Assembly: GCA_963766735.1 (NCBI GenBank)
Contig: CAVYBU010000003.1
Span: forward strand, 288,001 to 352,000
Source: an uncultured Chloroflexia bacterium
GTDB lineage: Bacteria; Chloroflexota; Limnocylindria; Limnocylindrales; CSP1-4
Length of the DNA: 64,000 nt
Reading direction: 5' to 3'
The translations under genes were made by a program, and so were the position numbers. The notes beneath the pieces are model-generated. The model was not told the origin of the DNA. It worked only from the letters and a program-made list of their open reading frames with translations, and ran no database searches. Positions 33,335 through 61,550 of this stretch are shown one piece after another; positions within the stretch are counted from its first letter, which is position 1; every line of letters starts with the position of its first letter.

Positions 33335-33519
33335 AGCGCCGCAGGCTACTCTTCGGACTGGCGCTCACGAAGCACATGCGCTTCCTGAGCACGAATCTCG
33401 TCGGGGCGTGGCGCAACGGTGGCGCACGTGCTCTGGGAGTCTCCGGGGCCTATTCGGTGCAGGGTCGGCCCGTCCACGCACGAACCGCTGAGCAGCGTAG
33501 GCGTCGATCATTAGGGGCT
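33335..33519 (+). repeat. tRNA-Pro 5'-half junction element, copy A (most degenerate full copy)
   Basis: ...gcacatgcgcttcctgagcacgaa - cggggcgtggcgcaacggtggcgcacgtgctctgggag (33402) - tctccggggcctattcggtgcagggtcgg...cgatcattaggggct. Confidence 0.92.
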
Positions 33520-33556
33520 TCCCGTGCGCGGGCGACCCCGGCACGGCGACAGACTC

Positions 33557-34075
33557 TCAGCCCGACGGTGCGGTTGGCGCCGGCTGGGGCCCCGTGTCTG
33601 GGCCGGGTGGAAGGACCAGCAGCGTCACCGTTGCCACGATCAGGGCGCCCAGCAGGCCCAACAGCACCCGGCGGGCCCATTGGGGCGAGACGACGGCCAC
33701 GACGACCCGGGTTACGCCGCTGGCCAGGAGGAGCGCCCCTCCGGCGTACGCGGCCATCACCAGGTACGAGGTGCCGATCCAGAAGGCATTGCCGGCCGTC
33801 GTGAGGGAGTGGCTCAAGTACAGCGGTACGACTGGCATCAGGGCGATGAGCGCACCGAGCCACGCGGCGAGGAGCCCTCGCCAGTCCGGGCGGATCATGA
33901 CGGCCGCGAGGGAGCACGTTGCCAACCAGCCCATGCGGGCGAGCGAGATCTGGCTGGAGTACGCGGGGTTGTCCAAGCCCAGGTCCGGCGAGATCAAGAG
34001 GCTGCCGACACCGAGCGCCCCCAGCAGGCCGGCCGCGGTGATGCGAGCGCAGCCATGGGACCACTGGCGTGTCAT
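33557..34075 (-). CDS. Hypothetical integral membrane protein
   Basis: About 5 hydrophobic segments. Confidence 0.6.
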   Translation of the reverse strand: MTRQWSHGCARITAAGLLGALGVGSLLISPDLGLDNPAYSSQISLARMGWLATCSLAAVMIRPDWRGLLAAWLGALIALMPVVPLYLSHSLTTAGNAFWIGTSYLVMAAYAGGALLLASGVTRVVVAVVSPQWARRVLLGLLGALIVATVTLLVLPPGPDTGPQPAPTAPSG

Positions 34076-34283
34076 CGGTTCCTTGGTGTCCACCTCAATC
34101 ACCTCACTCCATCGGTTCGGCAAATTGGGCCAGTTCGACCGCGGCATCGGCGGTCGAGGTTCCGGCACGGATCGGTCGCTCCTGTCACCGAGTTGGCGAG
34201 CATCGCGCCGAACGTCGTGCTGTCGATCTCCTCGTCGTGACCTCCGACGTCGCCGATACGAAGCGGATGTCGCCCCACCTGAG

Positions 34284-35663
34284 TCACCCGCCCGGGTAGG
34301 CGAGAAAGGCGCCGAGATCTGTCTCCCACATCCGCGCTGCGTCCGGGCCCCCGTAGGGCAGTGATCCGAACAGGATGAGGCGCCCGCCATGCGCGACCAC
34401 GGCCGTCGGGCCCTGACTGAACGCGGAGCTGGCCCCGAGCTCGAGGGTGGGGTCGTCAGGGAGACACGTCCAGCTCTCACCTGTCGCGGAGGTCCAGACA
34501 ATCAGGCGCCACGGCGGGATCTCCTCCCCGCCACCGCCCGCGGGCACCGTCGTCGCAGCACCCGTCGCCACGAGGCCGTCGTCGACCACCAGCAGCTCGC
34601 CGGCCAGCGCCATTGGGGCTCGCTGCTCGCCGGTCGGGTCACCCGGCCCGCCCGCGGACACGTCCGAGAGACCGGCGGCCTCGACCCGTTCCCAGGATTG
34701 ACCGTCGCTCGACCGCCATTGGGCGGGCAGGATCCCCTGTGCCTGGATTGCCGAGCCGATGGCGAGGAACCCCGACGCCGTGGCAGCGAGCGCCGCCGGC
34801 TCCGCCCCGTGGAAGTCGACCATGTCCGGGGCCAGGGTCCAGGTCCGGCCGTCGGGCGACCACCAGAAGGCCGCCCGCATCCCCTCGTTTGCCGTTGCGT
34901 CTGCGGCACCCGCGGCGATGTACCCGGCATCCGTCGCGATGATCACCCGGGTGCCGTTCCCGCCCGTCGCGGACGGCGCGCGCGTCCAAGTGCTCCCGTC
35001 GGGCGAGAACCAGGCAGACCCGTGCTGCCCGCAGTCGCCCCATTCGACGCCCACTGCCACGAACCCATCGGGCCCCGCCGCCACATCCTCGAGCGAAGTC
35101 GAGGCGCACCCCTGCGCGGGCTCGAAGGCGGTCGAACCGGGGACTTTGGTCCAGGAGCGGCCGTCGTCCGAAGTCCAGACCACGGGCCGGTTGCCGGAGG
35201 CGTCGTCGTTGCCCACGGCCACGAAGCTCCGAGGGCCGCGTGCGACAGCCATCATCCGCGATGCCGATCCGTCCACCGGGGCCGCGTCCCAGGTCTTTCC
35301 GTCGAGTGATGTCCAGGCTGCCGCCACCCCGATGGGGGATGCCTCCGTGGGCGCCGTGGACCCCACCGCCACGATGGCGCCGTCCACCGAGGTCGCGTCG
35401 TTGACGATCCCGGGCGCCGCTCCCACCTCCCAGGCAGGTCCACTCGCGGAGGGAGAGCCGGACGGGCTGCTGGTGGCTGGACTGCCGGCAGCTCCACAGC
35501 CGGCAACCATCCACACGCTCATGACCAAGACGGCTGCTCGCGCCGCCGCCGGCCAGGTGCCGGCGCGGCGCCGCGCGGTCGCCCCGGTGGGAATGGCGGG
35601 CAGGAGCAGCACGCAGCCGCCAAGGATGAGCCCCCCGCCGATCCGTCCGGCAAACTGGCGCAC
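34284..35663 (-). CDS. Putative lipoprotein with BNR/Asp-box-like repeats; N-terminus appears chimeric and the start is uncertain
   Basis: VAGC lipobox; repeats WTSLDGKTW, WTSDDGRSW, WFSPDGSTW, WWSPDGRTW. Confidence 0.7.
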   Translation of the reverse strand: MRQFAGRIGGGLILGGCVLLLPAIPTGATARRRAGTWPAAARAAVLVMSVWMVAGCGAAGSPATSSPSGSPSASGPAWEVGAAPGIVNDATSVDGAIVAVGSTAPTEASPIGVAAAWTSLDGKTWDAAPVDGSASRMMAVARGPRSFVAVGNDDASGNRPVVWTSDDGRSWTKVPGSTAFEPAQGCASTSLEDVAAGPDGFVAVGVEWGDCGQHGSAWFSPDGSTWTRAPSATGGNGTRVIIATDAGYIAAGAADATANEGMRAAFWWSPDGRTWTLAPDMVDFHGAEPAALAATASGFLAIGSAIQAQGILPAQWRSSDGQSWERVEAAGLSDVSAGGPGDPTGEQRAPMALAGELLVVDDGLVATGAATTVPAGGGGEEIPPWRLIVWTSATGESWTCLPDDPTLELGASSAFSQGPTAVVAHGGRLILFGSLPYGGPDAARMWETDLGAFLAYPGG

Positions 35664-35832
35664 GGTGTGCTCCCCGGGACGCTATCCGCGGATCGGCCTC
35701 ACGAGTGGCGGCGCGAGGGCCCGACCATCAATCGGTTGACGCGTGAGCCCGCGAACTGTGGCAGTCGCCGAGCTCCCGCCACAGGACACCTTCGGTGGCC
35801 GCCGGGCTCCAGGCGGGAGAAGATCGGCCCCG

Positions 35833-35895
35833 TATGCGGTGTAGGGTCGGGGGACCTGAGCGAGGCGGGCCGAGCGGCATGGGCACCGATTGTTG
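35833..35895 (+). repeat. Partial junction element, copy B (right arm only)
   Basis: tatgcggtgtagggtcgggggacctgagcgaggcgggccgagcggcatgggcaccgattgttg. Confidence 0.85.
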
Positions 35896-35985
35896 TGCGG
35901 TTGGCGTGCGCGATCCCCGGCTCTCCCGTTGCCCGGCCGGCCGCCCCCTTCCGGTTCGGTTCTCGGCCCCCTATGCTTCGCGGCC

Positions 35986-38900
35986 ATGATCCAGTGCGCG
36001 TCCTGCGGAACCGAGAACCCTGGCGGGTCGCGGTTCTGTAATGCCTGCGGCACGTCGCTCTCGGCCCCGGCTCCCTCGCTCCCCGAGGAGCGCAAGGTCG
36101 TGTCGGCGTTGTTCTGCGACCTCGTCGGTTTCACCGGCACGTCGGAGAGCGCCGACCCGGAAGACATCGACCGCATGCTCACGGCGTATTCCGCGATGGC
36201 CCGCCGCCATGTCGAGGCGCACGGCGGGGTGGTCGAGAAGTTCATCGGCGACGCGATCCTGGGCGTGTTCGGGGTGCCGGCGGCCCACGAGGACGACCCC
36301 GAGCGTGCGGTCCGGGCCGCGCTCCGGATCTGTGAGGACGCAGCCGACATGTCGGCCCTGGGCGAGGCACCGCTCCAGCTCCGGATCGGGATCAACACGG
36401 GCGAGGTCCTCGTCCGTCTCGGCGTTGCGCCTGGGTCGGGTGAGCGCTTCCTCGCCGGCGACACGATCAACACGGCGGCGCGGATCCAGGCGGTCGCCCC
36501 CGATTCCGCCGTCGCGGTCGGCCTCGCCACTTACGAGGCGACCAAGGCGGTGTTCGAGTACGTCGAGCTCCCGCCCGCGGCCCTCAAGGGCAAGGCCGAA
36601 CTCGTCCGGGTGTTCCAACCCACGGCGTCGCGGGCCCGGCTCGGCACCGACATCACCCGGACCCATCGCGGCCCGTTTGTCGGCCGCGAGATCGACCTCG
36701 CGCTCCTGCGAGGCCTGTTCGACAAGAGCATCGCGGCCGAGGCGGTGGGCCTCGTCACCGTCGTCGGGGGTCCGGGTCTCGGCAAGAGCCGGCTCGTGGC
36801 CGAGCTCGCAACGTTTGCCGACGACAGGCCGGAGTCGATCACCTGGCGGCAGGGCCACTGCCTGCCCTACGGCGAGGGGATCACGTTCTGGGCCCTGGGC
36901 GAGATCGTCAAGGCGCACGCGGGCATCGTGGAGACCGATCCGGCGTCGATCGCCGCCGACAAGCTCGAGGCGGTCCTGCCCGAGGGCGATGACCGCCCGT
37001 GGTTCCGCCAGCGTCTGCTCCCTCTGCTGGGCATTGAAGCGCCGAGCGGCGGCGCAGGAGGAGAACTGTTCGCCGGCCTGGCTGCCGCTTCCTCGAGCAC
37101 CTCGCCGAGCGGAACCCGACCGTGCTCGTGTTCGAGGACCTGCACTGGGCCGATGCAGGGCTCATCGCGTTCGTCGAGCACGTGGCGAGCCGCACCGAGG
37201 GCGTGCCGCTCCTGCTCATCGGGACGGCCCGCCCGGAGCTTCTCGAGCGTCACCCCCTGTTCCCCGGCAACAAGATCAGCCTGGCGCCGCTGTCCCCGGC
37301 CGAGACCTCCCGTCTCGTCGCGGGGCTCCTGGGGGCGGCCGTGCCATCCGAGCTCGCCGGCCCGATCCTCGAACGAGCCGAGGGCAACCCCCTCTACGCG
37401 GAGGAGTTCGTCCGCCTCCTCCGCGACCGTGACCTGCTCGACGAGTCCAAGGGCACGATCTCGCTGCGCCCGGGCGCCGCCGTCCCGCTGCCCGACTCGA
37501 TCGGGGCGCTGCTCGCGGCCCGCCTCGACACCCTGCCCCCCGACCGCAAGTCGCTGCTCGCGGACGCCGCGGTCGTGGGCAAGGTCTTCTGGGCAGGGGC
37601 GGTCGCGGCGATGGGCGGCCGGGACCTCGATGCCGTCACCGATGTCCTCCGCGAGCTGTCGCGCAAGGAGCTCGTGCGGCCCGCTCGCCGCTCCTCATTC
37701 GAAGGCGAGGCCGAGTACGCGTTCTGGCATGTGCTCGCTCGCGACGTCGCCTACAACGCCCTCCCGCGGGCATCGCGAGCGGCTCGCCACGTGGCCGCCG
37801 CCCGCTGGATCGAGTCGAAGACACCAGCCCGGGTCGAGGACCTCGCCGACGTCCTCGCCTACCACTACGGGACCGCACTCGAGCTGGCCCGGGCCGACGG
37901 CCAGGCCGACGAGGCCGCCGAGCTCGCCGTTCCTGCGTTCCGGTTCCTGTCGCTCGCGGGAGAGCGGGCACTCGGGCTCGACACCGATGCCGCCGTCGCC
38001 AACCTCGACCGGGCGCTTGCCCTCGCACCTGCGGGGCATCCCGAGCGGCCGGCGGCTCTGCTGCGGTTCGGGGAGGCGGCCTGGCACGCCGGACGATACC
38101 CGGAGGCCACGGCGGCGCTCGAGGAGGCGGTCACCCTGTTTCGAACAGGAGGCGACCTCCAGGCCGCCGGGCTGGCGATGAACGTGCTTGGCCGGGTGAT
38201 GAACGATCTGGGTGACCCGCGCGCGTTCACCCTTCCCGGCGAGGCGGTCGTCCTCCTCGAACCGCTTGGGCCGTCGCCCGAGCTCGTCACACTGCTGGCC
38301 GCGTGCGCGAGCGCGGCGTCCAACCAGGCCAGGAACCTCGACGCCATCCGGTATGCCGACCGGGCGCTCGCCCTCGCCGCAGACCTCGGCCTTCCCGAGC
38401 CCGCGTTGGCCCTCGCGTGGCGGGGCTTCGCGAGGGCCGTGCTCGGTGACGCAAGGGGCATCGATGAGGTCCGTCGCGCGACCGTGATCGCCACTGCGGC
38501 CGAGGATGGGCCCACGATGGCCTGGGTCAGCCAGCTGCTCGGGTACCTGCTCTGGGTGTTCGAGGGTCCAGCCGCGTCTCTCGTGGTCATACGGGAGACG
38601 CTTGCCTTTGCCCGCGGGCGGGGTCTCGTCGGCGCCGCCGACGCGAGCCTTGTGAACGCACTGGACGCACTCGTGGACACGGGGGAGTTCGACGAGGCGC
38701 TCCGGGTCGCGTCCGATCTCGAGACGCGCCTCCACGATGCCGTCTTCGCGCTGATCGGTGCTCACGCCGCACGGGCCGAGATCGCCGCCGTCCGCGGACG
38801 CGGCGGCGACCGGGTCGCCTCGCTGGACCGGCTCGTCGCCCACGCCCGCAAAGGGGGTTCGCTGGACTGGCTCGTCATCGGCCTGGCATCAGCCGCGCTC

Positions 38901-39372
38901 GCCCACGTGTCGGTCGGCGATCCCGAGGCGGCGGTGCGCCTGCTGCATGAGATCGAGAGCACGCCCGCGACTCGCGAGAACTCCAATTACGCCGCGTTTC
39001 TCCCGGCGATGGTCCGCGCCGCCCTGGCCGCGGGCGAGCCTGACTTGGCGAACCGCCTGGTCACAGGCCTCGAGGCACGGCATCCGTACGGGGCGCACGC
39101 GCTCGATCGCCGCAAACGCGACCCTCGCCGAGGCTCGCGGCGACCTTGCCGGTGCCGCAGAGGCATACTCGGACGCGGCGGGTCGATGGGAGCGGTTCGG
39201 GGTCGTCCCGGAACAGGCGTTCGCGCTCCTCGGTCAGGGCCGGTGCCTCATCGACCTCCGCCGGCCGGCCGAGGCGTCACCCGTGCTCCACGAGGCCCGT
39301 GAGCTCTTCGCCCGGCTCGGTGCGGCCCCCGCCCTTGCAGAGACCGACGCGCTGCTCGAGACGATCGACTGA
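35986..39372 (+). CDS. Zn-ribbon + class III adenylate/guanylate cyclase + STAND AAA ATPase + TPR-like protein (frameshifts near 37050-37085 and 39110)
   Basis: CASC..FCNAC, LFCDLVGFT, EKFIGDAI, GINTGEV, GDTINTAARIQ, GGPGLGKS, FEDLHWAD, GNPLYAEE. Confidence 0.85.
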
Positions 39373-39461
39373 CGGCCGCTTCGCGGCTGGGGCGAAGTCA
39401 GCGCCGGGCCGGCAACGATGGATCCATGCTCGGTGGAAGCAGTCCTCCGGCTGCGTGATTG

Positions 39462-39654
39462 GAGCGGTGGAGGCTGATCCGGAATGGCAGTGCGCACGGG
39501 CAATATGCGGTTCCTGAGCACGAATCTCGTCGGGGGTGTGGCGCAACGGTGGCGCACGTGCTTTGGGAGTCCCCGGGGCCTATGCGGTGTAGGGTCGGTG
39601 CTCCTGAGCGTGGCGGCCCGAGCGGCGTAGGCACCGATCATTGGGGGCTACGCG
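39462..39654 (+). repeat. tRNA-Pro 5'-half junction element, copy C
   Basis: ttcctgagcacgaatctcgt - cgggggtgtggcgcaacggtggcgcacgtgctttgggag (39531) - tccccggggcctatgcggtgtagggtcgg...gatcattgggggctacgcg. Confidence 0.95.
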
Positions 39655-39860
39655 ACCACGGCTCCGGTCCCAACACCAGCCGGTCGGTGGCCCGGTCGTA
39701 GAGGGCGATTGAGGCGGCTTCGGCCTCGAACACCGCTGCAGTGACATCCACCACCGAGTGCAGGACGGCACGCGCTGCCCGCCTCGAGGCGCCGCGCAGT
39801 TTCGGCGCGCATGGCGATCTCCCGCAGCAGCTGGAGCGTCTCCGGGCCAAGGGTCCTCAT
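39655..39860 (-). pseudogene. N-terminal fragment of a GAF-domain protein, cut off at junction element C
   Basis: MRTLGPETLQLLREIA.../RAVLHSVVDVTAAVFEAEAASIALYDRATDRLVL, then runs into the repeat. Confidence 0.7.
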
Positions 39861-39881: not shown

Positions 39882-40580
39882 TCACCGTTCCGCTGCTCGC
39901 TCCAGGCGGGCGACATCCGGGATGATCAGCGTGTCTCGTTCGATCAGCAGCAGGCCGCGCGCTGTCATGTCCGCGAGCAGGCGGTTCACCGACTGGCGCG
40001 TCCCGCCGATCATGGCCGCGAGGTCGCTCTGCGTGTACGGCCAATCCAGACGGACTCCCAGCGAGCTGTCGGGTTGGGCCTCGTGGGCGAGCCGGACGAT
40101 GCGGCTGGCCAGCCGCCCCGGCAGGTCGAGGAAGAGCAGCTCCTCAACGTGGGTGGTCAGCCGCCGCAACTCCGTCACGAGTGCTGCGAACAGGGCCTTC
40201 CTCAGCAGCGGATTGGTTGCCACCAGGTCCTCGAAGCGGCGGCGGCTCAGAACCAGGGCTTCGGTTGGCTCCATGGCGACGGCCGTCGCCGAGTGTGGCG
40301 CGCCGTCGAGCAGCGCGAGCTCTCCGAAGAAGTCACCGCGCGAGAGCGTGGCGATGATGGCGTCGTCCTCGGAATCCGGGTTGGACAGTACGATCTTCAC
40401 CGAGCCTGACTCGACGATGTAGAGCGATTCGCCGGGGTCGCCCTGGTGGAAGATGGTCTCGTGCTTCCGGTAGCGGCGCACGCGGAGCGTTCCGGCGCAC
40501 AGCGCCAGGGTCTCCTCGTCGACCCGGTCGAACAGCGCACAGCTTCGGAGCGCCTCGATCGCGACGCTGGCCTCGGTCAT
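39882..40580 (-). CDS. Crp/Fnr-family transcriptional regulator
   Basis: IFHQGDPGESLYIVESGSVKI, GDFFGELALLDGAPHSATA, HTH TQSDLAAMIGGTRQSVNRLL. Confidence 0.93.
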   Translation of the reverse strand: MTEASVAIEALRSCALFDRVDEETLALCAGTLRVRRYRKHETIFHQGDPGESLYIVESGSVKIVLSNPDSEDDAIIATLSRGDFFGELALLDGAPHSATAVAMEPTEALVLSRRRFEDLVATNPLLRKALFAALVTELRRLTTHVEELLFLDLPGRLASRIVRLAHEAQPDSSLGVRLDWPYTQSDLAAMIGGTRQSVNRLLADMTARGLLLIERDTLIIPDVARLERAAER

Positions 40581-40753
40581 CGGTCCTTCTCCTCGCGACG
40601 GCCCGGCGTGAACGCATGGTCCATCGTAGTGCGCCGGCCGGGCGCCGGGGAGGAGAAGCGAGAGGCGGCGCCGATCTGGCGCCGCCTCCTGTTCAACTGG
40701 TGGGGTGGGACGTGATGACGCCCGTCGTGCCTCCCAGACCCATGCGCGGACGA

Positions 40754-41038
40754 TCAGGAAATGGCTTTCTTCATGTGGGCCTCGACGTCGTCCTCGGTCG
40801 CCGACGGGGCCTTCTTCATGCCCTCGGGCTGGACGGGCTTGTCCTCGAACCCGATGGCCTTCTTCATGTGGGCCTCGACGTCGTCCTCGGTCGCCGACGG
40901 GGCCTTCTTCATGCCCTCGGGCTGGACGGGCTTGTCCTCGAACCCGATGGCCTTCTTCATGTGGGCCTCGACGTCGTCCTCGGTCGCCGACGGGGCCTTC
41001 TTCATGCCCTCGGGCTGGACGGGCTTGTCCTCTGACAT
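40754..41038 (-). CDS. Small peptide with three 31-aa tandem repeats (EDKPVQPEGMKKAPSATEDDVEAHMKKAIGF)
   Basis: AGGAG RBS upstream of ATG 41038; 93-bp units at 40761, 40854 and 40947. Confidence 0.75.
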   Translation of the reverse strand: MSEDKPVQPEGMKKAPSATEDDVEAHMKKAIGFEDKPVQPEGMKKAPSATEDDVEAHMKKAIGFEDKPVQPEGMKKAPSATEDDVEAHMKKAIS

Positions 41039-41300
41039 CTTCTTGCTCCTGTGCTTCCATGGCCTGGTCCATCGCCTTGACCGGACCCGTCCTGATCCCC
41101 GCGGCGACCTGAGTCCAGCACCGCGGACGCCGCCTCCAGTGTCGTCATGACAACATCAGAAACCAACTCTGGAGGGCCCGCTGGAGCACCGGCTCATGCT
41201 TCGAGGCTGAACCCTGACGACGGATCAACTGCCTGCTTGACGGCCTGCTTCTCGTACGGCGCTTCGCCCCGAACCCCGGCTCAGGTGCCTGGAGCTCGAA

Positions 41301-41576: not shown

Positions 41577-41898
41577 CCTTCTCCCGTCCGAAACCCTTGC
41601 GGCTGATCGGACCTGCGTTGCGATCGAACTGGGATCATCCTGGGCCGCGGACCCCGCGGCGTCTAGTGCTCGAGGTGACATTGATGGGGTCATTCGGTGG
41701 ACATGCCTCCCGGGCCGCGGGCATCTTCAGGGTCCCCGACGAGGCTCGCTGGACGGCGCTCAGGGTCGGCACGCCGCAGCCGGGGAGCCGTTCGCAGGGA
41801 ACGCGGGAGCCGTTCGACGCTGGCACACCCGCAGGCCGCCCCGTATCCTCAGGCACCGCTCCCGCTGGGCGAACCGCGACCCGGAGGTCCTCGCCGTC

Positions 41899-45417: not shown

Positions 45418-45482
45418 GCGACAGGCTCCCCGGCCGGGGGCAAGGCCGCGACGGTCTGTCAATGCTGGTGGTCGTGCGCCGC

Positions 45483-45674
45483 GAGCGCCGCAGGGTAGGC
45501 TTCCGGGTGTCGCTCGCGAAGCAGATGCGCTTCCTGAGCACGAGCTTCGTCGGGGCGTGGCGCAACGGTGGCGCACGTGCTTTGGGAGTCCCCGGGGCCT
45601 ATGCGGTGTAGGGTCGGCCCGTGCCGAGCACGAACCGCCGAGCGGCGTAGGCGCCGATTATTAGGGGCTACGCG
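45483..45674 (+). repeat. tRNA-Pro 5'-half junction element, copy D
   Basis: Exact 38-nt tRNA 5' half at 45551-45588 with both conserved arms. Confidence 0.97.
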
Positions 45675-45759
45675 AGTTCAAATTGTGCCCAGTCGGTCCA
45701 CCGAAACGGCCCGGACCGGGATGGACGTCGAGTCGTCCTGGGCGCCCGAGAGTTGCCCC

Positions 45760-46263
45760 CTACAGGCTGGAGAGGACGACCATCAGGGCAAGGACGAAGA
45801 CAATTCCTGACAGTTCGAGTGCGAACCCCAGGCGCAGCCGACGGACCGTGTCGGCGCGCCCAGCGGCGACCCGTGCCTCTGTCGGGACTGCCCACAGGGC
45901 ATCGTCGCCGGCCAGCCGCCGGGCTGCCGGGCTCGTGATGAGCCCCCCAACGGCGAAGATGGCGACCGTGACAGCGATCGCAGCGAGCCAAACGATCCCG
46001 TACTGGCTGCTAAGCGCGTCGATAGATCGTATCGGTCCGAAGACCGTTCCCCGCACGACCCCCAAGACGACGGCGAGCAGGGCCGCACCGATCAGAAGCC
46101 GTTCCGGGCCGAGGATCACGGTTCGGACGAGGTCGCGCTGGCGTTCGATCGGCTGCCCGAAGACGAACGGCAGCAAGACGAGGCTGGCGAACACGGATGC
46201 GCCCAGCCACGCGGCTCCGCCGAGGATGTGGAGGAACTGGACGAGCGCGAGCCCGTAGTCCAT
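45760..46263 (-). CDS. Four-helix membrane protein (DUF2269/CopD-like), sole gene of cassette D-E
   Basis: LVQFLHILGGAAWLGAS...; four hydrophobic segments. Confidence 0.75.
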   Translation of the reverse strand: MDYGLALVQFLHILGGAAWLGASVFASLVLLPFVFGQPIERQRDLVRTVILGPERLLIGAALLAVVLGVVRGTVFGPIRSIDALSSQYGIVWLAAIAVTVAIFAVGGLITSPAARRLAGDDALWAVPTEARVAAGRADTVRRLRLGFALELSGIVFVLALMVVLSSL

Positions 46264-46374
46264 GTGGCTCTCCGATGCGGACCGGTAGTTCGGCATTCGT
46301 ATGTATGAGGCGGTCAGGCTGCCACGTCAACAGGAGGGCGGCTTTCAGGACGAACCAGGCTCGGCGGAGCCCGG

Positions 46375-46566
46375 GAGCGCTGTAGGCTAGTCTTCTGATC
46401 GTCGTTCGGAGGCAGCACATGCGCTTCCTGAGCACGAAACCAGTCGGGGCGTGGCGCAACGGTGGCGCACGTGCTTTGGGAGTCCCCGGGGCGTATGCGG
46501 GGTAGGGTCGGCCCTGCCGAGCACGAGCGGACGAGCGGCGTAGGCACCGATTATTAGGGGCTACGC
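46375..46566 (+). repeat. tRNA-Pro 5'-half junction element, copy E
   Basis: Exact tRNA 5' half at 46445-46482 with both arms; 894 bp from copy D. Confidence 0.97.
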
Positions 46567-46803
46567 CAGCACGGACCGGTGACCTGGCCGTTCCGGCCGT
46601 CGAGGGCTCTGACGCTCGAACGGCCCGTCCCATTGGCGGCTTGGCCGAGGCTGGACCCGGATCGGGACGCCACCGAGCGCCTCACGCTGACTCGGCTGTG
46701 GCGGTGGGGGATCAGGTTCCGGTCGGTGACGATGACGTAGACCGCTCGCTGACTCTGGTTCGACGATGGAAGAGTTCAGCTCAACGCAAGGTCCGCGGCT
46801 CGG

Positions 46804-51852: not shown

Positions 51853-53863
51853 TCAGGGAGACCATATGGCTGCCCGTTCCGCCTGTGTCGGGCACCAGGG
51901 GACGGACCCGTCCATTGCGTCGAGCGATCCGCCCGCCACGAGCACGCGGCCTGACGATAGGCCAATCGCCGCGCCACGCGACCGAGCCTTCGGCATTGGC
52001 GCCAACTCGGTCGACAGACCCGTGGCCGGGTCGAAGAGTTCGACCGACGTCAACGCCGTGGCGTCCGGCTGTCCGAGGTGGCGTTCGCCGCCCGCGAGCA
52101 GCACCCGGCCGTCGGTCCGTACCGCAATCGCGGCCGCGGAGCGGTCGGCGAGCGTTCGCCCGATCACTGACCAGCCCGTATCGGGGCTGTAGCGAAGCAC
52201 GTCGCGCGACCCGCCAACGAACAATGCCGACGAGCCGAAGAACAAGGCTGATCCGTCGGGCAACGCGACGGCGCTGCCGAGCGCTCCCGGCGGGGTCAGG
52301 TTCTTCCACGCGCGGCTGCCGGGCGACCAGGCGGCGGCGAGCACCGTCTCCCCGTCGGTAGCCCGCGACCCGCCGAACACCAATGCCCCGCCGCTCCCGA
52401 GGGCGACGCCACCCGTGAGATCCCCGTCCCAGGGGAGTTCGCCGGCAGTCTTCCAGCGGTCGGCAGCCGGGTCGTAGACCTCGGTTGAGCGGGTCGAGTC
52501 GCTTGACACAGTGCTACCGCCGGCGACGAGGACGCGGCCGTCGGAAAGGGTCACGGCCACCGGCGCCCGGCGCCCAAGGCTCATCGTGGCGACCTCGGCC
52601 CATTGTCCGGTATCGCTGCTCCAGATCCGGGTGCTCGACTTGGGCACGAGTCCTGCGTTGAGGCCGCCGGTCACGAGCACGCGGCCGTCAGGGAGTGCCG
52701 CGACGGCGTAGTAGGCCCGCGCGTTGTCGAGGCTGCCCGACCTGATGAACCGGGCGGTGTTGGGACTCCAGACGCGCGCCAAGGGCACCGGCATTCTGTC
52801 ATCGCCTGGATAGGTGCAGGGGCCAGTCGTATCCATGAGCACGACCAGGTCACCCGGTCCTGGCACGAGCACGGGGCTGTCGGCCATGGCGGGGCCCTGG
52901 ACGTCTGTCCACGTCCCCCCCACGGACTCGAGGGAGGGGGCAGGTGTCGGCGTGGGCGCTGGCGTCGGCGCCCGGGTGGGCGAGGGGGAGGCCCGACGGC
53001 GTCGGCTCGGGCTCGGTGCCATCGGAGTGGGTGTGGCGGACCCCGAAGGTTGTGACGTCGGCGTTGGTGACGGCGTTGAGGAGCACGGTCACGAAGTAGG
53101 CACCCGTCTGCTCAAGGAGGCTCCAGAGCAGCTGGCGGGCCTTGATCCTCTGGACATCGTCCGGCCCCGGAAGGTAGTGCGGGAGCACGAGGTCGGGCAG
53201 CAGGTCGTTGACCATGTTGATGACCCCGCCCCAATCCTGCTTCACGGCCGCAGCCCGCACCTCGGGGTAGTGCCAGAAGATGTAGCTTGCGACCGTACCC
53301 GTCGCCTCCCCCGGGAAGCCGGCGAGGCCCAGGAACGTAGTCACGATGATGAGGATGGCCTCGTAGATTGCCGTCTCCTGGGTGACGCCCGCGGTGATGA
53401 CGATCTCGCCCCGCGGCTCGTCCTCATGGATGTCGAGGGCGAATTTGCCCCCTGGCGGGAGGAACCCCCACAGGTAGCTGTTGCCGTCACCCCAGCACGA
53501 CCCCTCGATCGCGCACGCAGCGCCCAAGCCCTGCTCACCGCCGCCCCCAACGTAGAAGGCGAGGGCCAGCGAGCCGTTGAGCCGGAACGCGTCGAGGACC
53601 TTGGAGAGGGCGACGGTGTGCACCTGGGTCATGTCGTCGATGATGGCCGTTTCGTTCTTCAGCACGACCCGCACGGTGCGCGGCGTCTCCTGGTCGCGGG
53701 TGAGGCTCACGCTCGAGCCGGCGCCGTCCACGCTCCACCGCCCATGGTCGGGCCAGTCGGGCATGCGGATTGGGTACTCGTAGGCCGCCACCGGGGCAGC
53801 GCCGAGGGGTAGGGCGAGGACGACGGCCGCCATCGCCGCAGCGAGTGCTCGCAGCATCGTCAC
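51853..53863 (-). CDS. Secreted protein with a PT linker and C-terminal Kelch beta-propeller (frameshift near 53000-53040)
   Basis: Signal peptide at 53863; LPDGRVLVTGG, LSDGRVLVAGG, TDGRVLLAGG repeats. Confidence 0.7.
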
Positions 53864-55031: not shown

Positions 55032-55348
55032 AGCAGGCTCCCTTCACGAGACTCACACCAGCCGGAACCGTGCGGCTGCACTCTGGGACCGGTGGCGACC
55101 CCACGCAGGCAGGCTGGGTGCCGGGCGCTCGAGACGCCACGTGCCGGAGCGACCGTCATGCAGGGCCGAAGGTAGCCGTATCGTCTGTGGTCGGATCGTC
55201 CCTGCCGGTACAGGGTCGGCCGCGCCCGCCAATGGCTATCCACTCGTAGAAGGGAGGGGGCCGATGACGAGGATCGGTTTCCAGGGCGCCATCAGGGATC
55301 GTTCCGGCCGCGTCAGGGGTCGAGCGGACGCCCGAGATATGCTCCTCA

Positions 55349-55491
55349 AGCGGTGTAGCCTAGGCGTCCGCTTCTCGAACGAGGAAGCACATGCGCTTCC
55401 TGAGAGTCCCCGGGGCCTATGCGGTGCAGGTTCGAGGGTCCTGAGCGTGGCTGGCCGAGCGGCGTAGGCACCGATTAATAGGGGCTACGCG
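55349..55491 (+). repeat. Junction element copy F, with the tRNA half deleted
   Basis: gcacatgcgcttcctgag joined directly to agtccccggggcctatgcgg...gattaataggggctacgcg. Confidence 0.93.
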
Positions 55492-56080
55492 AGTTCAGAT
55501 TGTGCCCAGTCGGTCCACCGAAACGGCCCGGACCGGGATGGACGTCGCGTCGTCCTGGGCGCCCGAGAGTTGCCCCCAATAGGCTGGAGAGGACGACCAT
55601 CAGGGCAAGGACGAAGACAATTCCTGACAGTTCGAGTGCGAACCCCAGGCGCAGCCGACGGACCGTGTCGGCGCGCCCAGCGGCGACCCGTGCCTCTGTC
55701 GGGACTGCCCACAGGGCATCGTCGCCGGCCAGCCGTCGGGCTGCCGGGCTCGTGATGAGCCCCCCAACGGCGAAGATGGCGACCGTGACAGCGATCGCAG
55801 CGAGCCATACGATCCCGTACTGGCTGCTAAGCGCGTCGATAGATCGTATGGGTCCGAAGACCGTTCCCCGCACGACCCCCAAGACGACGGCGAGCAGGGC
55901 CGCACCGATCAGAAGCCGTTCCGGGCCGAGGATCACGGTTCGGACGAGGTCGCGCTGGCGTTCGATCGGCTGCCCGAAGACGAACGGCAGCAAGACGAGG
56001 CTGGCGAACACGGATGCGCCCAGCCACGCGGCTCCGCCGAGGATGTGGAGGAACTGGACGAGCGCGAGCCCGTAATCCAT
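55475..56080 (-). CDS. Second copy of the four-helix membrane protein; stop lost, 34-aa extension into the repeat arm
   Basis: Same protein as 45760-46263 at offset 9817; CTG TAG changed to CTA TTG. Confidence 0.75.
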   Translation of the reverse strand: MDYGLALVQFLHILGGAAWLGASVFASLVLLPFVFGQPIERQRDLVRTVILGPERLLIGAALLAVVLGVVRGTVFGPIRSIDALSSQYGIVWLAAIAVTVAIFAVGGLITSPAARRLAGDDALWAVPTEARVAAGRADTVRRLRLGFALELSGIVFVLALMVVLSSLLGATLGRPGRRDVHPGPGRFGGPTGHNLNSRSPY

Positions 56081-56191
56081 GGGGCTCTCCGATGCGGACC
56101 GGTAGTTCGGCATTCGTATGTATGAGGCGGTCAGGCTGCCACGTCAACAGGAGGGCGGCTTTCAGGGCCAACCAGGCTCGGCGGAGCCCGG

Positions 56192-56380
56192 GAGCGCTGT
56201 AGGCTACTCTTCTGGTCATCGCTCGGGGCGCACATGCGCTTCCTGAGCGTGAAGCTCGCCGGGGCGTGGCGCAACGGTGGCGCACGTGCTTTGGGAGTCC
56301 CAGGGCCTATGCGGGGTAGGGTCGGGGGCCCGAGCACGACCGGGCGAGCGGCGTAGGCACCGATTATTAGGGGCTACGCG
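56192..56380 (+). repeat. tRNA-Pro 5'-half junction element, copy G
   Basis: Exact tRNA 5' half at 56260-56297 with both arms. Confidence 0.97.
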
Positions 56381-56430
56381 AGCACGACAGACAGCCTCGT
56401 TGCCGACCGCGCTGACGGGTGGGCTTTGCG

Positions 56431-57368
56431 TCACTTGCTGATGAGGGTCGACCGCCAGGCCACCTCGCTGTCCGGCGTGATCGCGAGAAGCGTGATCGCC
56501 GACCCGGCCCCGGCAGGCTCGACCGCCGTTGCGTAGACCGTCCCGTCGGCGCCGGCCACCACGACATCCCAGCGCCCGGCCGGGTTCGTGAGCTTGACCG
56601 GCCAGCCGTCAACGACCCGGCCGTCCGGCCCGACCGCGACGACTCGCCTGCTGCTCTTCGCATCAGCCGGCGCCAGAAGGACCAGAAGCACATGCTCACC
56701 GGGGCCGAGGGCCGGCACCGTCCGCCACACGCCGCATCCTGTATCGCCCAGCGGCATTCGCCCTGCTCCCCGATGGGCGCACCGGCCGACCACGGCCACC
56801 CGTCGCGGACGGTGCCGTCGGGTCCGAGCGCGTGGACGACGACGCGGTCGCGGTCGTCGACGCCCAGGACCCACGCGGATCCGCCTGGCTCGAGCACGGG
56901 CCTGATCGGCGCGTACCCGCCCGCAAAGGTCGCCTCGGAGATGCGCGGCGCGACTCCGGCCCGGGGGAGGCCGTGTGACCGGCGCAATGCTCGGCAGCGC
57001 GCGTCACCCGAATTCCAGGAGGGGGAGACCCGGATCCGTCCGTCACAGGCGTCACGCTGCCGCTCGCGGGCGGCAAGCGGCAGCTGCGACGACCGGCGAT
57101 GGGATGCGATGCAGCCAGACGCACGATCGGGCTCGCGCAGGCACGGGCGTGGGGGCATCGGGCGGCCAGGATCGGATCCGCGGCGCTCGGGCAGGGTGAC
57201 CCGCGGCAGGTGCTCGAGGGCCAGGGCATCGCCCCGGAACGCATGCGCCCTGCGGGCACAGGCCGGGCACGCGGCGAGGTGCGCCTCGAGGCGGCCGCGC
57301 TCGTACGCCGCAAGCGGGTAGTCGATCGCGGTGGCGGCGAGTGCGAGGAACGTGTCGTGCGTGGTCAT
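56431..57368 (-). pseudogene. zf-HC2 anti-sigma factor, disrupted or internally deleted
   Basis: MTTHDTF...EAHLAACPAC, then frame breaks; C-terminal propeller-like GPDGRVVDGWPV. Confidence 0.6.
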
Positions 57369-57939
57369 TGGGACGCCTCCGCCGACTCGAGCCGGCTGCG
57401 GACCCGGATGCGGGTCCGGCAGAGCAGGGTGCGGGTGGCTGCCTCGGAGCGCCCGATCGCGGCGGCGATCTCGGCCCCGCTGAAGCCTTCGGATGACAGG
57501 AGCAGCGCCGCCCGGGCTCCGGGGTCGAGGTCCGCGAGGATGCCCACGATCGCGGCCCGGCCCTCGCGCGCGAGGTAGCTGGCCTCGGGGGTGACGGTCG
57601 TCACCGGCGGCGCGGTGCGGTGGTCTGGATCCTGACCAGCCCGCGCAGCGCGGTGGAGAGGCGCCGGCCGCGGCTGACCGCGAGGTTGGCACCCACCCGG
57701 TACAGCCAGGCCCGGATGTTGTCGGGGGTCCGCCCCGCCCGCACCTCGCGGGTCAGGCGCAGGTAGGCCTCCGAGAGCAGGTCCTCGGCGACCCCGGGGT
57801 CGCGCGCGGTCCGGACCAGGAACGCGTACACCTCCGCGTGGTGGTCGGTCCAGGCGGCCACGACCAGCGCGTCCGCCTGCGCGGCGCGGGTGGCGCCCGC
57901 GGCGTCCACCGATTCGAGAGGAGAGGTCACCGGTTCCAC
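57365..57939 (-). CDS. ECF sigma-70 factor (frameshift near 57610)
   Basis: AEDLLSEAYLRL, RAWLYRVGANL; region 4 EGFSGAEIAAAIGRSEAATRTLLCR is in a second frame. Confidence 0.8.
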
Positions 57940-57947
57940 GCCGATGA

Positions 57948-57973
57948 GACGCTATGCCCCGCCTGGTGTTTCA
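57948..57973 (-). promoter_or_regulatory. Putative autoregulatory ECF promoter TGAAAC-N16-CGTC
   Basis: Directly upstream of the sigma start codon; matches the classic SigW/SigM-type architecture. Confidence 0.65.
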
Positions 57974-58087
57974 GGGCAGGGGCAAGAGGGCGACGACGGG
58001 CGGGTGCGAATGACCGCGGGCAGGGTGTCCCGGAAGGGCGACCAAGCGGTGAGGCCGCGGGCGGGGAGTCGCGCCGGACAGGGCAGG

Positions 58088-59428
58088 TCAGCGCAACAGC
58101 CAGGCGACCTGCTGGCCTTCCGCCGTGGATCCGCTGATGCCGACGACACCGGCCGGCCCGTCCGCGACGAGCCGCGGGCCGTAGTCGAACTGCGGCCGCT
58201 CGGCCTGCGGCAGCTGCGTCCAGGAGACGCCGTCGTCGCTCACCCAGGTCTCGTGCCTCACCCCGCCCCCTTCCCTGCTCTCGGCGCCGACGGCCACATA
58301 GCCGCGATCCGAGAGGACGAGATCCGTCACGGCGGTCACGCTCACCGTGTCTTCGGGGTCCTCCGCGACGGCGGGCGGCCCGGCCGGGAGCTCCTGCGAC
58401 TTCCAGCTGGTGCCGTCGGAGGACGACCAGATCGTCGGCGCGCCGGCGCGTCCCGCGTCGACGTCCCAGCCATTCCGCCCGGCGAGCACCCAGGGGTTGC
58501 GGTCGCCCGCCGGGGCCGTGCCCGCGAACACCTCGGCTCCCTGGCCCGGGAAGCCGTCGAGGACGCTCCACGACGCTCCGTCGGCCGTGATCGCGAGTGT
58601 CGTGTTGAGCTCGTAGCCGCTGGCCGCGAGGAGATAGGGCCCGGACGGGTTCGCGACGCCCACGGGAGCGCGGTCGTAGCCCTCCCAGCCGGCCGGGGGC
58701 ACCTGCTCGGTGGCTGCCCATGACGTGCCGTCGGCGGAGTGCCACAGCATCCTGCCTCCCAGGCTCTCGCCGGACCAGTCAGAGAGCGCCGCCGCCCAGC
58801 CGCCCTCCGCCACCGGCCATGCCGCGACGAGCTCGCTCAGCTCACCCTTCCCGTTCCCCGTGTAGGCGCGGCGCCAGGCGACGCCGTCGTCCGAGATCCA
58901 GGCGATGGGCGAAATCGAGCAGTCAGGCCCGCCGCCCGTGCTGCCGGGTTCGGTGAGACTGCACGGCGTGTGGCTGTAGCCGCCGACGACGAGCACCTCG
59001 CGCCCGTTGGTCGCGATCGCCCGGCCGAGCAGGCCGTTCGCATCGGTCGCTTCCGAGCGGTCGCCCTTCAGCGGGAGCTTCACGTTCTTCCAGGACGCGC
59101 CGTCAGCCGAGAACCAGACGCTGCCGGTGGTCCCTTCGAGGGCGACGTAGCCCTCGTCGAACCCGATGATGCCGTTGACGCGAGTCACCGGGATGACCCC
59201 CAGGCGGTGCCAGGCGAGCGTGTCGGCTGAGCCCGTCCAGGACGACGCCGACGGGCCGGGAGACCCCGGCGAGGGTGCCGCCGTCGGTGGGATCGGGGCG
59301 GAAGTCGCAGTCGGCGACGCGGTCGGAACTGCTGTTGACGGAACTGGGTCCGGCGTTGTCGAGGCTGCCGGCGCAACGCAACCCGCGACGACAAACAGCA
59401 CGGCCAGCGCCCCGAGGGCTCGAGTCAT
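58088..59428 (-). CDS. Lipoprotein with BNR/Asp-box-like repeats
   Basis: Lipobox VAGC; WFSADGASW, WISDDGVAW, WSSSDGTSW, WVSDDGVSW. Upstream GGTAAC-N16-CGTC (59486-59461). Confidence 0.78.
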   Translation of the reverse strand: MTRALGALAVLFVVAGCVAPAASTTPDPVPSTAVPTASPTATSAPIPPTAAPSPGSPGPSASSWTGSADTLAWHRLGVIPVTRVNGIIGFDEGYVALEGTTGSVWFSADGASWKNVKLPLKGDRSEATDANGLLGRAIATNGREVLVVGGYSHTPCSLTEPGSTGGGPDCSISPIAWISDDGVAWRRAYTGNGKGELSELVAAWPVAEGGWAAALSDWSGESLGGRMLWHSADGTSWAATEQVPPAGWEGYDRAPVGVANPSGPYLLAASGYELNTTLAITADGASWSVLDGFPGQGAEVFAGTAPAGDRNPWVLAGRNGWDVDAGRAGAPTIWSSSDGTSWKSQELPAGPPAVAEDPEDTVSVTAVTDLVLSDRGYVAVGAESREGGGVRHETWVSDDGVSWTQLPQAERPQFDYGPRLVADGPAGVVGISGSTAEGQQVAWLLR

Positions 59429-60175: not shown

Positions 60176-60445
60176 GTCGCTGCGGCGAGGCAGCCAGGCC
60201 CGAGCGGCTGACCAGCTCGAGTCAGCGACAGCGACAGCCGGGAACGAGGACTCGACTTCGCCCCGGTCGGCCAGGGCCGCTGGCGGCTCGTGGCGGGATC
60301 GCAGGACCGGGGCACCGGCGAGGACATCGACAGGGACCGCCTCGGAGGTGATCGTGGCGGCGAAGCCGCGTCCCTCGCTGATCGTGGCCGGAGGTCCGAA
60401 CAGGATCTGGAGCCGGTCGATCAGGAGCGCGAGATGACGAAACAA

Positions 60446-60862
60446 CTAGCGGGGGTCGGGCACCATCACCGGACGCAGCGCGAGACCCTCGATCCCCGCG
60501 AAGTCGTCCGGGTTGCACGTGTAGAGCGGGAGGCCATTGGCGATCGCCGTGGCCGCGATCAACGCGTCGAGCGCCCGGGCGGCCGGCTTCCGGCCGGACC
60601 GGCGGAGCGACGACGCGACCTGGCCGAACGCGCGGGCGGCGGCCGCGTCGAACGGGAGGGGGTCGAAGTCCGCCTCGGCCTGCTGGACATGAGCCAGACG
60701 ACGGGCTCGCTCGGCCTCGTCATTCGTCACGAGTGGCCCGACCGAGAGTTCGGCGAGGGTGATCGCCGAGATGAGCGGGACGTCGGGCAGGACGGACGGA
60801 ACGTCGATCCGCGGCAGCAGCAGCAGGGTGCTAGTGTCGAGCAGGCCCTCCGGGTCGCTCAC
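60446..60862 (-). CDS. vapC: VapC-family PIN-domain toxin
   Basis: GLLDTSTLL, ISAITLAEL, LPFDAAAA, DALIAATA, LYTCNPDDF. Confidence 0.9.
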   Translation of the reverse strand: MSDPEGLLDTSTLLLLPRIDVPSVLPDVPLISAITLAELSVGPLVTNDEAERARRLAHVQQAEADFDPLPFDAAAARAFGQVASSLRRSGRKPAARALDALIAATAIANGLPLYTCNPDDFAGIEGLALRPVMVPDPR

Positions 60863-61095
60863 AGGCCGGGTTCGATCACCGTGTCGACCTCGTGGCGCAG
60901 CCTCGTCGCATCGACTTCCGGCAGGCGACGCCAGCGCTCGAGGAGCGCGGCCGCCGACAGACCCCGCGGGCGGATGGGCCGCAGCTCGGCGACCGGTCGC
61001 CCGTCGCGCGTCACCGTCACGTGCCCGCCGGTCTCGACGCGGTCGACGACCTCACCTCCGCGGTTGCGCAACTCCCGGATCGTCACGGTGTCCAC
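60859..61095 (-). CDS. Phd/YefM-family antitoxin
   Basis: VTIRELRNRGGEVVDRV...VTRDGRPVAELRP; GTGA overlap with the toxin. Confidence 0.88.
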   Translation of the reverse strand: MDTVTIRELRNRGGEVVDRVETGGHVTVTRDGRPVAELRPIRPRGLSAAALLERWRRLPEVDATRLRHEVDTVIEPGL

Positions 61096-61407
61096 GCCAA
61101 GAACCGTATCACCGGTGATACACTTGTCAAGTGCCACCATGAGCCCCGGGATTGACCGCCAGCGCGATGCCATACAGCCCGCTGCCGGCGTTGTCGCCGG
61201 CGACGATGATGGTCATAGCGACCATGCATGCCACGCAACCGCCGATCACGAGCCCGCCGCCGATCCTTCCCATCCGCATCTCAGGCTCTCGGTCGATGAC
61301 AAGGTCGCACGAGGCTGCTTCGAGCAGCCCGCGGCCAACCTTGGCGGCGGTCAGGCGATCCGGCGAGATCCGAACGGCTCCGGCCGCCGATCGCGGCGCA
61401 GGCGCAT

Positions 61408-61513
61408 GAGCGCTGTAGGCTAGTCTTCTGGTCGTCGCTCGGGACGCACATGCGCTTCCTGAGCACGAAACCTGTCGGGGCGTGGCGCAACGGTGGCGCA
61501 CGTGCTTTGGGAG
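61408..61513 (+). repeat. Junction element copy H: left arm plus the 5' half forming the intact tRNA
   Basis: gagcgctgtaggctagtcttctg...gcacatgcgcttcctgagcacgaaacctgt precedes the tRNA, as in copies A and C-G. Confidence 0.95.
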
Positions 61514-61550
61514 CACGAGGGTGTGGGTTCGAATCCCACCGCCCCGACCA
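61476..61550 (+). tRNA. tRNA-Pro(TGG)
   Basis: Cloverleaf CGGGGCG/CGCCCCG, GCGC D-stem, CGTGC-TTTGGGA-GCACG, GTGGG-TTCGAAT-CCCAC, encoded ACCA end. Confidence 0.95.

Follow-up and report, generated by a model that had tools for sequence, protein, structure and literature searches.

The stretch of DNA analysed here, G000:C3:288001-352000 (G000 being the source genome, a member of an uncultured lineage of the Chloroflexota; the whole 64,000-nucleotide stretch is called the window below), contains a row of ~190-bp modules upstream of a proline tRNA gene, tRNA-Pro(UGG), and each full module includes the 5' half of that gene. We consider it probable that this row is a tandem array of helper-dependent integrative units without an integrase of their own, accreted on the 5' side of the tRNA gene through recombination in the anticodon loop by a Xer-like integrase. 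An earlier reading of the same stretch (hereafter the original prediction) had noted that islands in tRNA genes usually duplicate the 3' part of the gene. This is indeed the rule but it is not absolute, since in the Islander survey 159 of 3919 islands have a 5' tDNA fragment; arrays of three or more islands number four (Hudson et al. 2015, PMC4383910).

Islander tDNA islands share with the present locus a tyrosine integrase, a crossover in the anticodon loop, restoration of the gene, a co-oriented displaced fragment at the far end and the occurrence of tandems. The window has an intact tRNA gene with co-oriented 5' fragments upstream that end at the anticodon-loop sublocation, and the tyrosine integrase looked for inside an island is absent from the window and present in relatives. 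Islander counts array members only when they have their own integrase, whereas here five to nine units are present, none with an integrase. Unlike in those islands, the segment shared by attP and attB here includes ~68 bp of upstream DNA, and the integrase is Xer-like.

Within the same phylum, the ssrA gene of Dehalococcoides carries tandem islands at one small-RNA gene, delimited by end repeats and variable in number between strains, and 15 islands without an integration module were suggested by the authors to be cis-mobilizable (McMurdie et al. 2011, PMC3146451). That system, as described there, uses a serine recombinase and a repeated 20-bp piece from the 3' end of ssrA, with the islands downstream, whereas the window array has a 190-bp module with the 5' half, islands upstream and a tyrosine recombinase in relatives. 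Besides, PMC3146451 reports no duplicate islands within any Dehalococcoides strain, while one unit is duplicated here. The cis-mobilizable elements (CIMEs) and the accretion described for elements of the ICESt1/ICESt3 type are also comparable: as presented in PMC5704250, which cites Pavlovic 2004 and Bellanger 2011, they are units bearing attL and attR, without integration or transfer genes, in tandem at a tRNA-type site, and they can be mobilised by the integrase of a related element. The units of the window are likewise flanked by att-type sites and carry no integration or transfer genes. On the other hand, that review describes CIME mobilisation as experimentally shown and places the site at the 3' end of the target gene, while here we infer mobilisation only.

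The original prediction called the array integron-like. As in integrons, small units stand in a row parted by a conserved recombination module, entry would take place at one fixed site, and what appears to be a simple (Xer/IntI-like) tyrosine recombinase is encoded beside the site in some relatives. The likeness is nevertheless an analogy only, since there is no IntI-type integrase and no supported attC-like hairpin, the insertion site is internal to a tRNA gene, a unit has from one to several genes, in varying orientation, and each insertion here would push the integrase gene off the site. Identity with an integron was rejected, as neither IntI at an attI site, nor attC folds, nor co-oriented promoterless cassettes of a single open reading frame (ORF) were found. 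The dusA-specific integrases also enter the 5' end of their target gene, but that target is protein-coding and not a tRNA gene (Farrugia et al. 2015, PMC4482086). A literature search found no description of the present system; Islander's list of 5' fragments may already contain relatives of it. The feature is explained in kind as site-specific accretion at a tRNA gene, and is a variant in four respects, namely the 5' side with a supplied promoter, the Xer-like integrase clade, the 190-bp junction module, and the mostly integrase-less small units.

The junction row at tRNA-Pro(UGG)

Copies of the module were located by repeat finding, alignment and BLAST, and by nhmmer with a profile of 49 junctions from the window and 27 loci of relatives. 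The source genome (3.6 Mb in 35 contigs, ~71% G+C, 94% complete, contamination 4.2%) has 62 tRNAs with five tRNA-Pro genes among them, and the gene at the end of the row, which ARAGORN and Rfam report as the one tRNA of the window, is the sole UGG isoacceptor gene found. Upstream of it lie five full and two partial copies of the ~190-bp module, all on the plus strand, with a copy-to-copy spacing of 0.85-9 kb (Table 1). The full module consists of a ~68-bp left arm, nt 1-38 of the tRNA and a ~95-bp right arm, and the five full copies are matched by the profile at E values from 3.6e-47 to 2e-58. Identity to the tRNA runs from nt 1 to nt 38/39 and stops after TTTGGGAG in the anticodon loop, and the intact gene is preceded by the same left arm as the junctions. 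The original prediction had given these coordinates and this anatomy, with one orientation, a breakpoint just past the anticodon loop and a left arm common to the junctions and the intact gene, all of which ARAGORN, Rfam, alignment, BLAST and nhmmer bore out.

Ten matches to the profile were obtained in the whole genome (E<=1.2e-4), eight of which make up a single co-oriented row ending at the intact tRNA gene. The two others are at C30:258625-258758 on the minus strand, a junction that lacks the left arm and whose 5' half is diverged, and at the end of contig C5 (2-68). The expectation that copies occur only upstream of tRNA-Pro holds for the eight matches of the row and for all mapped relatives, but not for the copies on C30 and C5.

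Some boundaries of the row are eroded. In copy F, a left-arm piece ending in ...GCGCTTCCTGAG is joined straight to the right arm (AGTCCCC...), the remaining left arm and tRNA nt 1-38 being gone. Two more boundaries became visible by comparison with other sequences, among them assembled contigs from Logan (runs X1, X2, X6 and X9 were examined). A contig of run X6 joins position 47242 to tRNA nt 1 (61476; ATC between, side 255), without 14.2 kb of the window, and at 58051 the genome G118 and contigs of runs X1 and X2 read on into TAGCCTAGGTC..., that is, the left arm and then the tRNA. Counting these two hidden boundaries, the window may hold up to nine units of 0.66-8.1 kb.

To the left of position 33331, no further junction relic was detected with the nhmmer profile (--max). 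The flank of one relative, G162, just beyond its last junction matches window 19412-20376, the flanks of G010 and G009 match window 6.2-11.5 kb, and window genes at 24.2-24.9, 26.9-29.5 and 32.6-33.1 kb have 67-77% identity to array cargo of relatives. Judging by such sequence similarities, the hot spot may extend left of junction A, over 19412-33330.

The right arm is kept as sequence, with GAGCGGCGTAGGCACCGATTATT as its strongest block, while no fold is supported: RNAalifold on 48 copies gave no compensatory pair, and the best hairpin (GCGTAG...CTACGC) was matched by 48 to 270 of 500 shuffles. Conservation of sequence and not of fold is as expected of a protein-binding site. In the middle of the arm, a segment of ~27 nt is wholly different between two copies of one unit (45613-45639 vs 55425-55451); across 48 copies this segment falls into few types, with the cores GAGCACGA, GAGCGTGG and GAACTCAA, and local hairpin predictions in it vary copy by copy. 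The decamer GCG[GC]NG[TC]AGG has one site in the left arm and two in the right arm of full copies D, E and G (three of five), and full copies A and C are without one or two of these sites. The left arm contains, in addition, a degenerate copy of the anticodon arm, with 17 of 27 positions matching (a score reached by 11 of 5000 shuffles), and the deletion in copy F extends from one of the two equivalent positions to the other. The regions covered by a consensus scan yielded no promoter, and the single terminator-like site in them is off the arms and within shuffle expectation. The left arm is presumably the tRNA promoter, and one may guess that ATTATT, conserved in the right arm, is an opposite-strand -10 box driving the integrase in the circular form only.

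Instead of scars of recombination, the copies could be genes for functional RNAs, or else cis-regulatory leaders derived from the 5' half of the tRNA, that were multiplied by ordinary duplication. Each copy does retain what is presumed to be the promoter region of the tRNA, followed by a 5' half that is near-perfect, and plus-strand folds are slightly more stable than those of shuffles (z -1.2 to -2.4, with minus-strand z-scores of ~0). We regard this explanation as very improbable, considering that no Rfam family matches the junctions at gathering score or at E<=1, that the 48 aligned copies are without compensatory pairs and the best hairpin is so often equalled by shuffles, and that most of the genes following the copies are encoded on the other strand. 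It would also leave unexplained the association with an integrase and the parallel at tRNA-Val described below.

Arrays and tyrosine integrases in relatives

Seventy genomes of the genus were compared by DNA search, and the tRNA 5' half with the right arm was found in at least 27 of them, G000 included; among the genus genomes without junctions, some have just the tRNA and the left arm. The junctions of relatives are always upstream of, and co-oriented with, the intact tRNA in every mapped locus, with one to six per array. All 49 junctions behind the profile retain the anticodon-loop motif (exact TTTGGGAG in most) and leave tRNA identity within a few bases after it, and in 48 of the 49 the right arm is of one family. 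Where the 5' half has polymorphisms peculiar to one genome, the intact gene and all junctions of that genome have them in common (e.g., in G206, G203, G226 and G046), which implies either exchange within lineages or gene conversion.

The number and content of units vary between species and between environmental strains, in line with the variable cargo content and order that the original prediction had envisaged. A unit with a sigma/anti-sigma pair, 1.8 kb long in the window, is also present in the arrays of G118, G019, G206 and G210; it adjoins the tRNA in G118 and is fourth or fifth from it in G019 and G206. Similarly, a unit homologous to the cyclase cargo at 35890-39302 adjoins the tRNA in G221 and is far from it in the window. 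The tRNA-proximal 3.8 kb of G218 is 96.8% identical to the window, and the two sequences are different beyond 57920.

At least 120 metagenome stretches carry the junction signature, and 80 such loci were examined. Two or more profile matches are present in 26 of these, and their orientation is uniform in all 26; the same architecture was found in many independent assemblies, some of 7-10 contigs. These data bear on whether the module is a dispersed repeat, such as a miniature inverted-repeat transposable element (MITE) or a repetitive extragenic palindrome (REP), or an artefact of assembling a metagenome-derived genome. An assembly of 35 contigs with 4.2% contamination, one copy far from the tRNA on C30 and one at the contig end on C5 leave some room for this, but with eight of ten matches in one co-oriented row at the tRNA, the recurrence in independent assemblies and no case of mixed orientation among the multi-match contigs, we consider it hardly credible. 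A MITE/REP-like repeat would be recognised by many copies in both orientations irrespective of locus, and what was found is one co-oriented row.

The original prediction had proposed a search for a tyrosine recombinase that co-occurs with the module, and such a gene was found directly upstream of the intact tRNA in relatives. In G019, G009, G229, G162 and G227, an intact tyrosine recombinase of 316-340 amino acids lies 100-250 bp upstream of, and divergent from, the intact tRNA. The same arrangement recurs in G005 and in seven further family genomes, and by coordinates G023, G013 and G198 also appear to have the integrase directly upstream of the intact tRNA. The integrase family occurs in 57 of 151 family genomes, with the unpublished G121 counted among them, and in 34 of the 70 genus genomes. 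Thirty-four of its 43 loci have a tRNA at the 5' end of the integrase, with 27 on the 5' side of the tRNA and seven on the 3' side, and five of the nine loci without a tRNA end at a contig end. By tRNA, the 27 loci on the 5' side are distributed over Pro (13), Val (8), Arg (2), Gly (2), Met (1) and Lys (1). At tRNA-Val, the same integrase clade is accompanied by fragments of nt 1-41/42 lying 10-13 kb upstream of the intact gene (G142, G108, G055).

The relatives' integrase matches domain PF00589 at 92-93 bits, and the XerC/XerD models at E values of 1e-38 to 1e-46, far under their cutoffs, over residues ~23-290 of 316; the integron-integrase model TIGR02249 gives 48-51 bits vs a cutoff of 265. 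Read by eye, the translation appears to contain the catalytic motifs R, K, HxxR, W and Y. Going by these model matches, the protein is probably a Xer-like (simple) tyrosine recombinase. The units that do bear an integrase are 2-19 kb long and contain Replic_Relax, DUF3631, an MmeI-type restriction-modification gene and SRA-HNH. In the tree, of which a quick version was made, a supported clade (SH-aLRT 99) unites all 16 Pro rows with three of the eight Val rows, five contig-end rows and one row without a tRNA. Two species of the genus have identical integrases (L027/L084, from G009 and G227), and in the same tree integrases are near-identical across three genera (L018/L031/L035, from G005, G060 and G045); such near-identity in different genera is a hint, at the sequence level, of recent horizontal transfer of integrase-bearing elements.

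The statement in the original prediction that no integrase is in view proved true of the window, where tblastn with the integrases of two relatives gave a best E of 0.2, and of the whole assembled genome, where tblastn found no integrase of the clade and only Xer-like genes at 25-31% identity. The same genome has, at G000:C2:350185-350913, a different tyrosine integrase (PF00589, 78.5 bits) just downstream of, and convergent with, tRNA-Pro(GGG), which is the classical 3'-side arrangement.

Considering the row in the window together with the arrays of relatives, we propose the following mechanism. A circular unit would carry an attP made up of the ~68-bp tRNA upstream region (presumably with the promoter), tRNA nt 1-38 and the ~95-bp right arm. 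Crossover at or just left of TTTGGGAG would join the promoter and 5' half of the unit to the resident 3' half, and as the incoming 5' half completes the resident 3' half, the sole tRNA-Pro(UGG) gene would stay intact. The promoter and 5' half that were resident before would become joined to the right arm of the unit and be displaced to the unit's far side, and repeated rounds would produce the row of junctions made of left arm, 5' half and right arm. The enzyme would be the integrase that related elements carry in relatives, and we are largely confident that the array is the work of an integrase of this clade. That the junctions stem from successive integration of units bringing the 5' half and the upstream region (presumably the promoter), as the original prediction held, is supported by the comparison with relatives and not by direct observation, and both the recombination itself and its crossover point are deduced from sequence.

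Units without an integrase: helper dependence or decay

A census of closed units, i.e., those with a junction on both sides, gave 88 units from the window, the relatives and the metagenome loci, which are not independent because related genomes and overlapping contigs are included. Four have a full integrase, three give short matches and 81 none; the median size is 2.6 kb, and 24 units are below 1.5 kb. The right arms are of two subtypes, and all units of the window belong to subtype I. A full integrase was found in none of the 74 classifiable subtype I units vs three of nine subtype II units, and G009 adds a fourth integrase-bearing subtype II unit, split over two loci. Since the arms remain 75-90% alike, an integrase of 950 bp lost by point mutation alone would remain detectable; with no integrase trace in most units, only deletion or arrival without an integrase fits.

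Deletion is the core of the principal rival explanation, by which each unit came with its own integrase beside the left arm and lost it later, so that the array would be inert, vertically inherited and eroding. The decay of integrated elements to CIMEs is the usual route to tandems according to the review PMC5704250, remnants that keep the N-terminal part of an integrase beside the left arm are present in G210, G046 and the metagenome locus L150, and the eroded junctions of the window (B, F, 47242 and 58051) show active deletion. Several species share the sigma/anti-sigma unit, with 75-91% identity, in keeping with vertical descent, and the genome is without an integrase of the clade. Decay nevertheless has to account for 81 units without any trace when even their short arms are still so much alike, for the 24 of all 88 closed units that are so small, and for the difference between the subtypes in full integrases. 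Just three units have remnants, two of these being of 38-39 amino acids and maybe noise. It also has to account for integrase-less units that are present more than once. A 0.9-kb unit occurs twice in the window (D-E and F-G), ~99% identical inside and with homology from the crossover onward, and the sigma/anti-sigma unit occurs three times in the genome, on C30 and C5 as well as in the window. The 0.9-kb unit was found in only three of 301 family genomes, namely G000, G023 (97% identity) and G275 (70%), and this distribution, as judged from sequence identity, gives no evidence of wide transfer. Overall, pure decay is the main rival, and we hold it to be rather unlikely.

The best reading is that of CIME-like units needing a helper integrase, and dependence on a helper, as opposed to simple decay, is by a narrow balance what we favour. 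We infer that the subtype I units of the window rely on an integrase supplied in trans and that each is not the wreck of an autonomous element; mobilisation in trans, as put forward in the original prediction, is plausible.

Several observations weigh against the explanation as a whole, in addition to the shared ancestry and overlap within the census. The integrase remnants in G210 (114 amino acids, in a subtype I unit beside the tRNA) and in G046 (residues 20-166, beside an inner junction) mean that deletion does yield integrase-less units. In each of the five genome loci whose arrays were mapped, an intact integrase adjoins the intact tRNA, and a resident integrase that often captured units should often be displaced from the tRNA. 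Such a displacement is suggested in a single case, the metagenome contig L180 (1257-2450), where an apparently intact integrase is beside a full junction with a right arm and not beside an intact tRNA; this integrase was either displaced by a later insertion or belongs to the attP of a free element, the contig being short. The integrase-bearing unit of G019 is without a recognisable right arm. In the integrase, the XerC/XerD-like match begins at about residue 23 and nothing points to an arm-binding domain, so that the protein offers no explanation for the 95-bp right arm. No circle or back-joint was found in the Logan contigs of the four runs, though contigs cannot reveal rare circles; only 'skip' joints were present, most of them located in repeats and with sides of 21-29 letters. 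Terminal overlaps are absent from all 80 metagenome loci, no circular contigs were found, and the junction signature has no match in viral contigs. Finally, with no integrase of the clade in the window or in the 94%-complete genome, nothing can act here now. The array in this genome is at present an orphan and could move only once a helper integrase arrives.

A more far-reaching proposal, which we offer tentatively, is that subtype I is a dedicated lineage of integrase-less cassettes, each with the ~190-bp module of tRNA promoter, 5' half and 95-bp arm, which a Xer-like integrase provided in trans by the minority subtype II elements would insert, excise, duplicate and shuffle at the tRNA-Pro(UGG) anticodon loop. 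This would be an independently evolved integron-like platform, widespread in Limnocylindria-type Chloroflexota of soils and sediments. When words of the window were sampled, no run contained half or more of them, and habitat names are leads only.

Cargo of the array and its biological meaning

No integrase or other mobility gene was found in the cargo of the window. The cargo genes point in both directions, and some units contain more than one gene, with regulators among them (Table 1).

Table 1. Junctions, unit boundaries and cargo genes of the window, with positions counted from its first nucleotide
Feature	Position	Strand	Details
Junction A, full	33331-33537	+	Left arm 33335-33401, tRNA nt 1-38 33402-33439, right arm 33440-33531; nhmmer E 3.4e-53
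Junction B, right-arm-only remnant	35831-35923	+	Left arm and tRNA half lost; profile positions 128-220, E 1.2e-10
Junction C, full	39457-39672	+	Left arm 39462-39531, tRNA nt 1-38 39532-39569, right arm 39570-39661; E 3.6e-47
Junction D, full	45475-45691	+	Left arm 45483-45550, tRNA nt 1-38 45551-45588, right arm 45589-45680; E 7.6e-57
Junction E, full	46371-46584	+	Left arm 46375-46444, tRNA nt 1-38 46445-46482, right arm 46483-46580; E 2e-58
Unit boundary, junction-less	47242-47243	+	In C30 and the run X6 contig, sequence to 47242, then ATC, then tRNA-Pro nt 1
Junction F, deleted form	55342-55508	+	Two nhmmer pieces, profile positions 7-68 and 114-220
Junction G, full	56188-56402	+	Left arm 56192-56259, tRNA nt 1-38 56260-56297, right arm 56298-56390; E 2.1e-54
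Unit boundary, left arm truncated	58051-58052	+	Window ...AAGCGGTG, then unrelated DNA; loose ends at 58051 in Logan contigs
Left arm and intact tRNA-Pro(UGG)	61405-61550	+	Left arm 61408-61475, tRNA 61476-61550; ARAGORN tRNA-Pro(tgg), Rfam tRNA 68.4 bits; 61405-61519 = profile positions 10-124
Cyclase/AAA_16/TPR cargo (adenylate/guanylate cyclase, STAND-like)	35890-39302	+	Two overlapping frames, 35890-38181 and 37122-39302
Crp-like regulator (cNMP_binding and HTH_Crp_2)	39882-41072	-	Contains 3 x 93-bp tandem repeat
Second paralogue, cyclase remnant/AAA_16	41697-44597	+	Pfam matches in frame 42256-44232
178-aa ORF, probably membrane protein	45760-46296	-	Weak CopD match; cargo of the 0.9-kb unit D-E
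ECF sigma factor (regions 2 and 4) fused to zf-HC2 anti-sigma motif	48412-50079	+	
Kelch-repeat protein	51853-53022	-	
Anti-sigma-like ORF (weak zf-HC2 match) and ECF sigma fragment	56367-57939	-	1.8-kb unit
PIN toxin and Phd/YefM antitoxin	60446-61173	-	Toxin 60446-60862, antitoxin 60859-61173; adjoining the tRNA

The membrane-protein cargo of unit D-E has its second copy in unit F-G, at 55475-56113. Both cyclase/AAA_16/TPR paralogues switch frame midway, near 37.1 and 43.7 kb, respectively, and could be pseudogenes, genes with programmed frameshifts or products of assembly errors. The tandem repeats of the Crp-like gene, at 40761-41039, are 94-99% alike and lie in its N-terminal part.

The extra copies of the sigma/anti-sigma unit in the genome, at C30:255985-259288 (L001 5985-9288) and C5:1-1150, have 90-96% identity and are away from any tRNA. 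The region of the C30 copy is flanked by sequences that recur at other contig ends, and it could be a dispersed copy, a result of strain mixing or a chimeric join. In the Logan data, summed depth (X1, X2) at 57201-58400 is several-fold above most of the stretch and is comparable only at the tRNA bin, which fits the presence of the sigma unit in many organisms or copies. A c-di-GMP-II-GAG riboswitch was detected at window 24819-24903 on the minus strand (70 bits), with many related copies in the genome (blastn: C2, C3, C7, C8). This riboswitch is also present within arrays of relatives (L001 4371-4448, L074 6749-7463, L071 12615-12687, L070 3242-3312), and in G218 it sits between two junctions.

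As a rule of thumb, elements that enter tRNA genes take the place of the 3' end, and the locus and its relatives are a repeated and clear exception: in one bacterial family, an entire clade of integrases comes in from the 5' side and has to supply a promoter. The 5' tRNA halves left in such arrays would otherwise be annotated as pseudo-tRNAs or overlooked. The integrase, the ~190-bp attP and the universal tRNA-Pro target are, in combination, a candidate tool for site-specific insertion in bacteria without genetic tools. For the organism, the 28-kb stretch (perhaps 41 kb) is a hot spot of gene acquisition in an uncultured, environmentally common lineage of the Chloroflexota, loaded with signalling and regulatory genes, namely those for cyclase-STAND proteins, Crp, ECF sigma/anti-sigma pairs and the PIN/Phd toxin-antitoxin. 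If mobilisation in trans is true, the array would represent an integron-like capture system founded on a tRNA gene.

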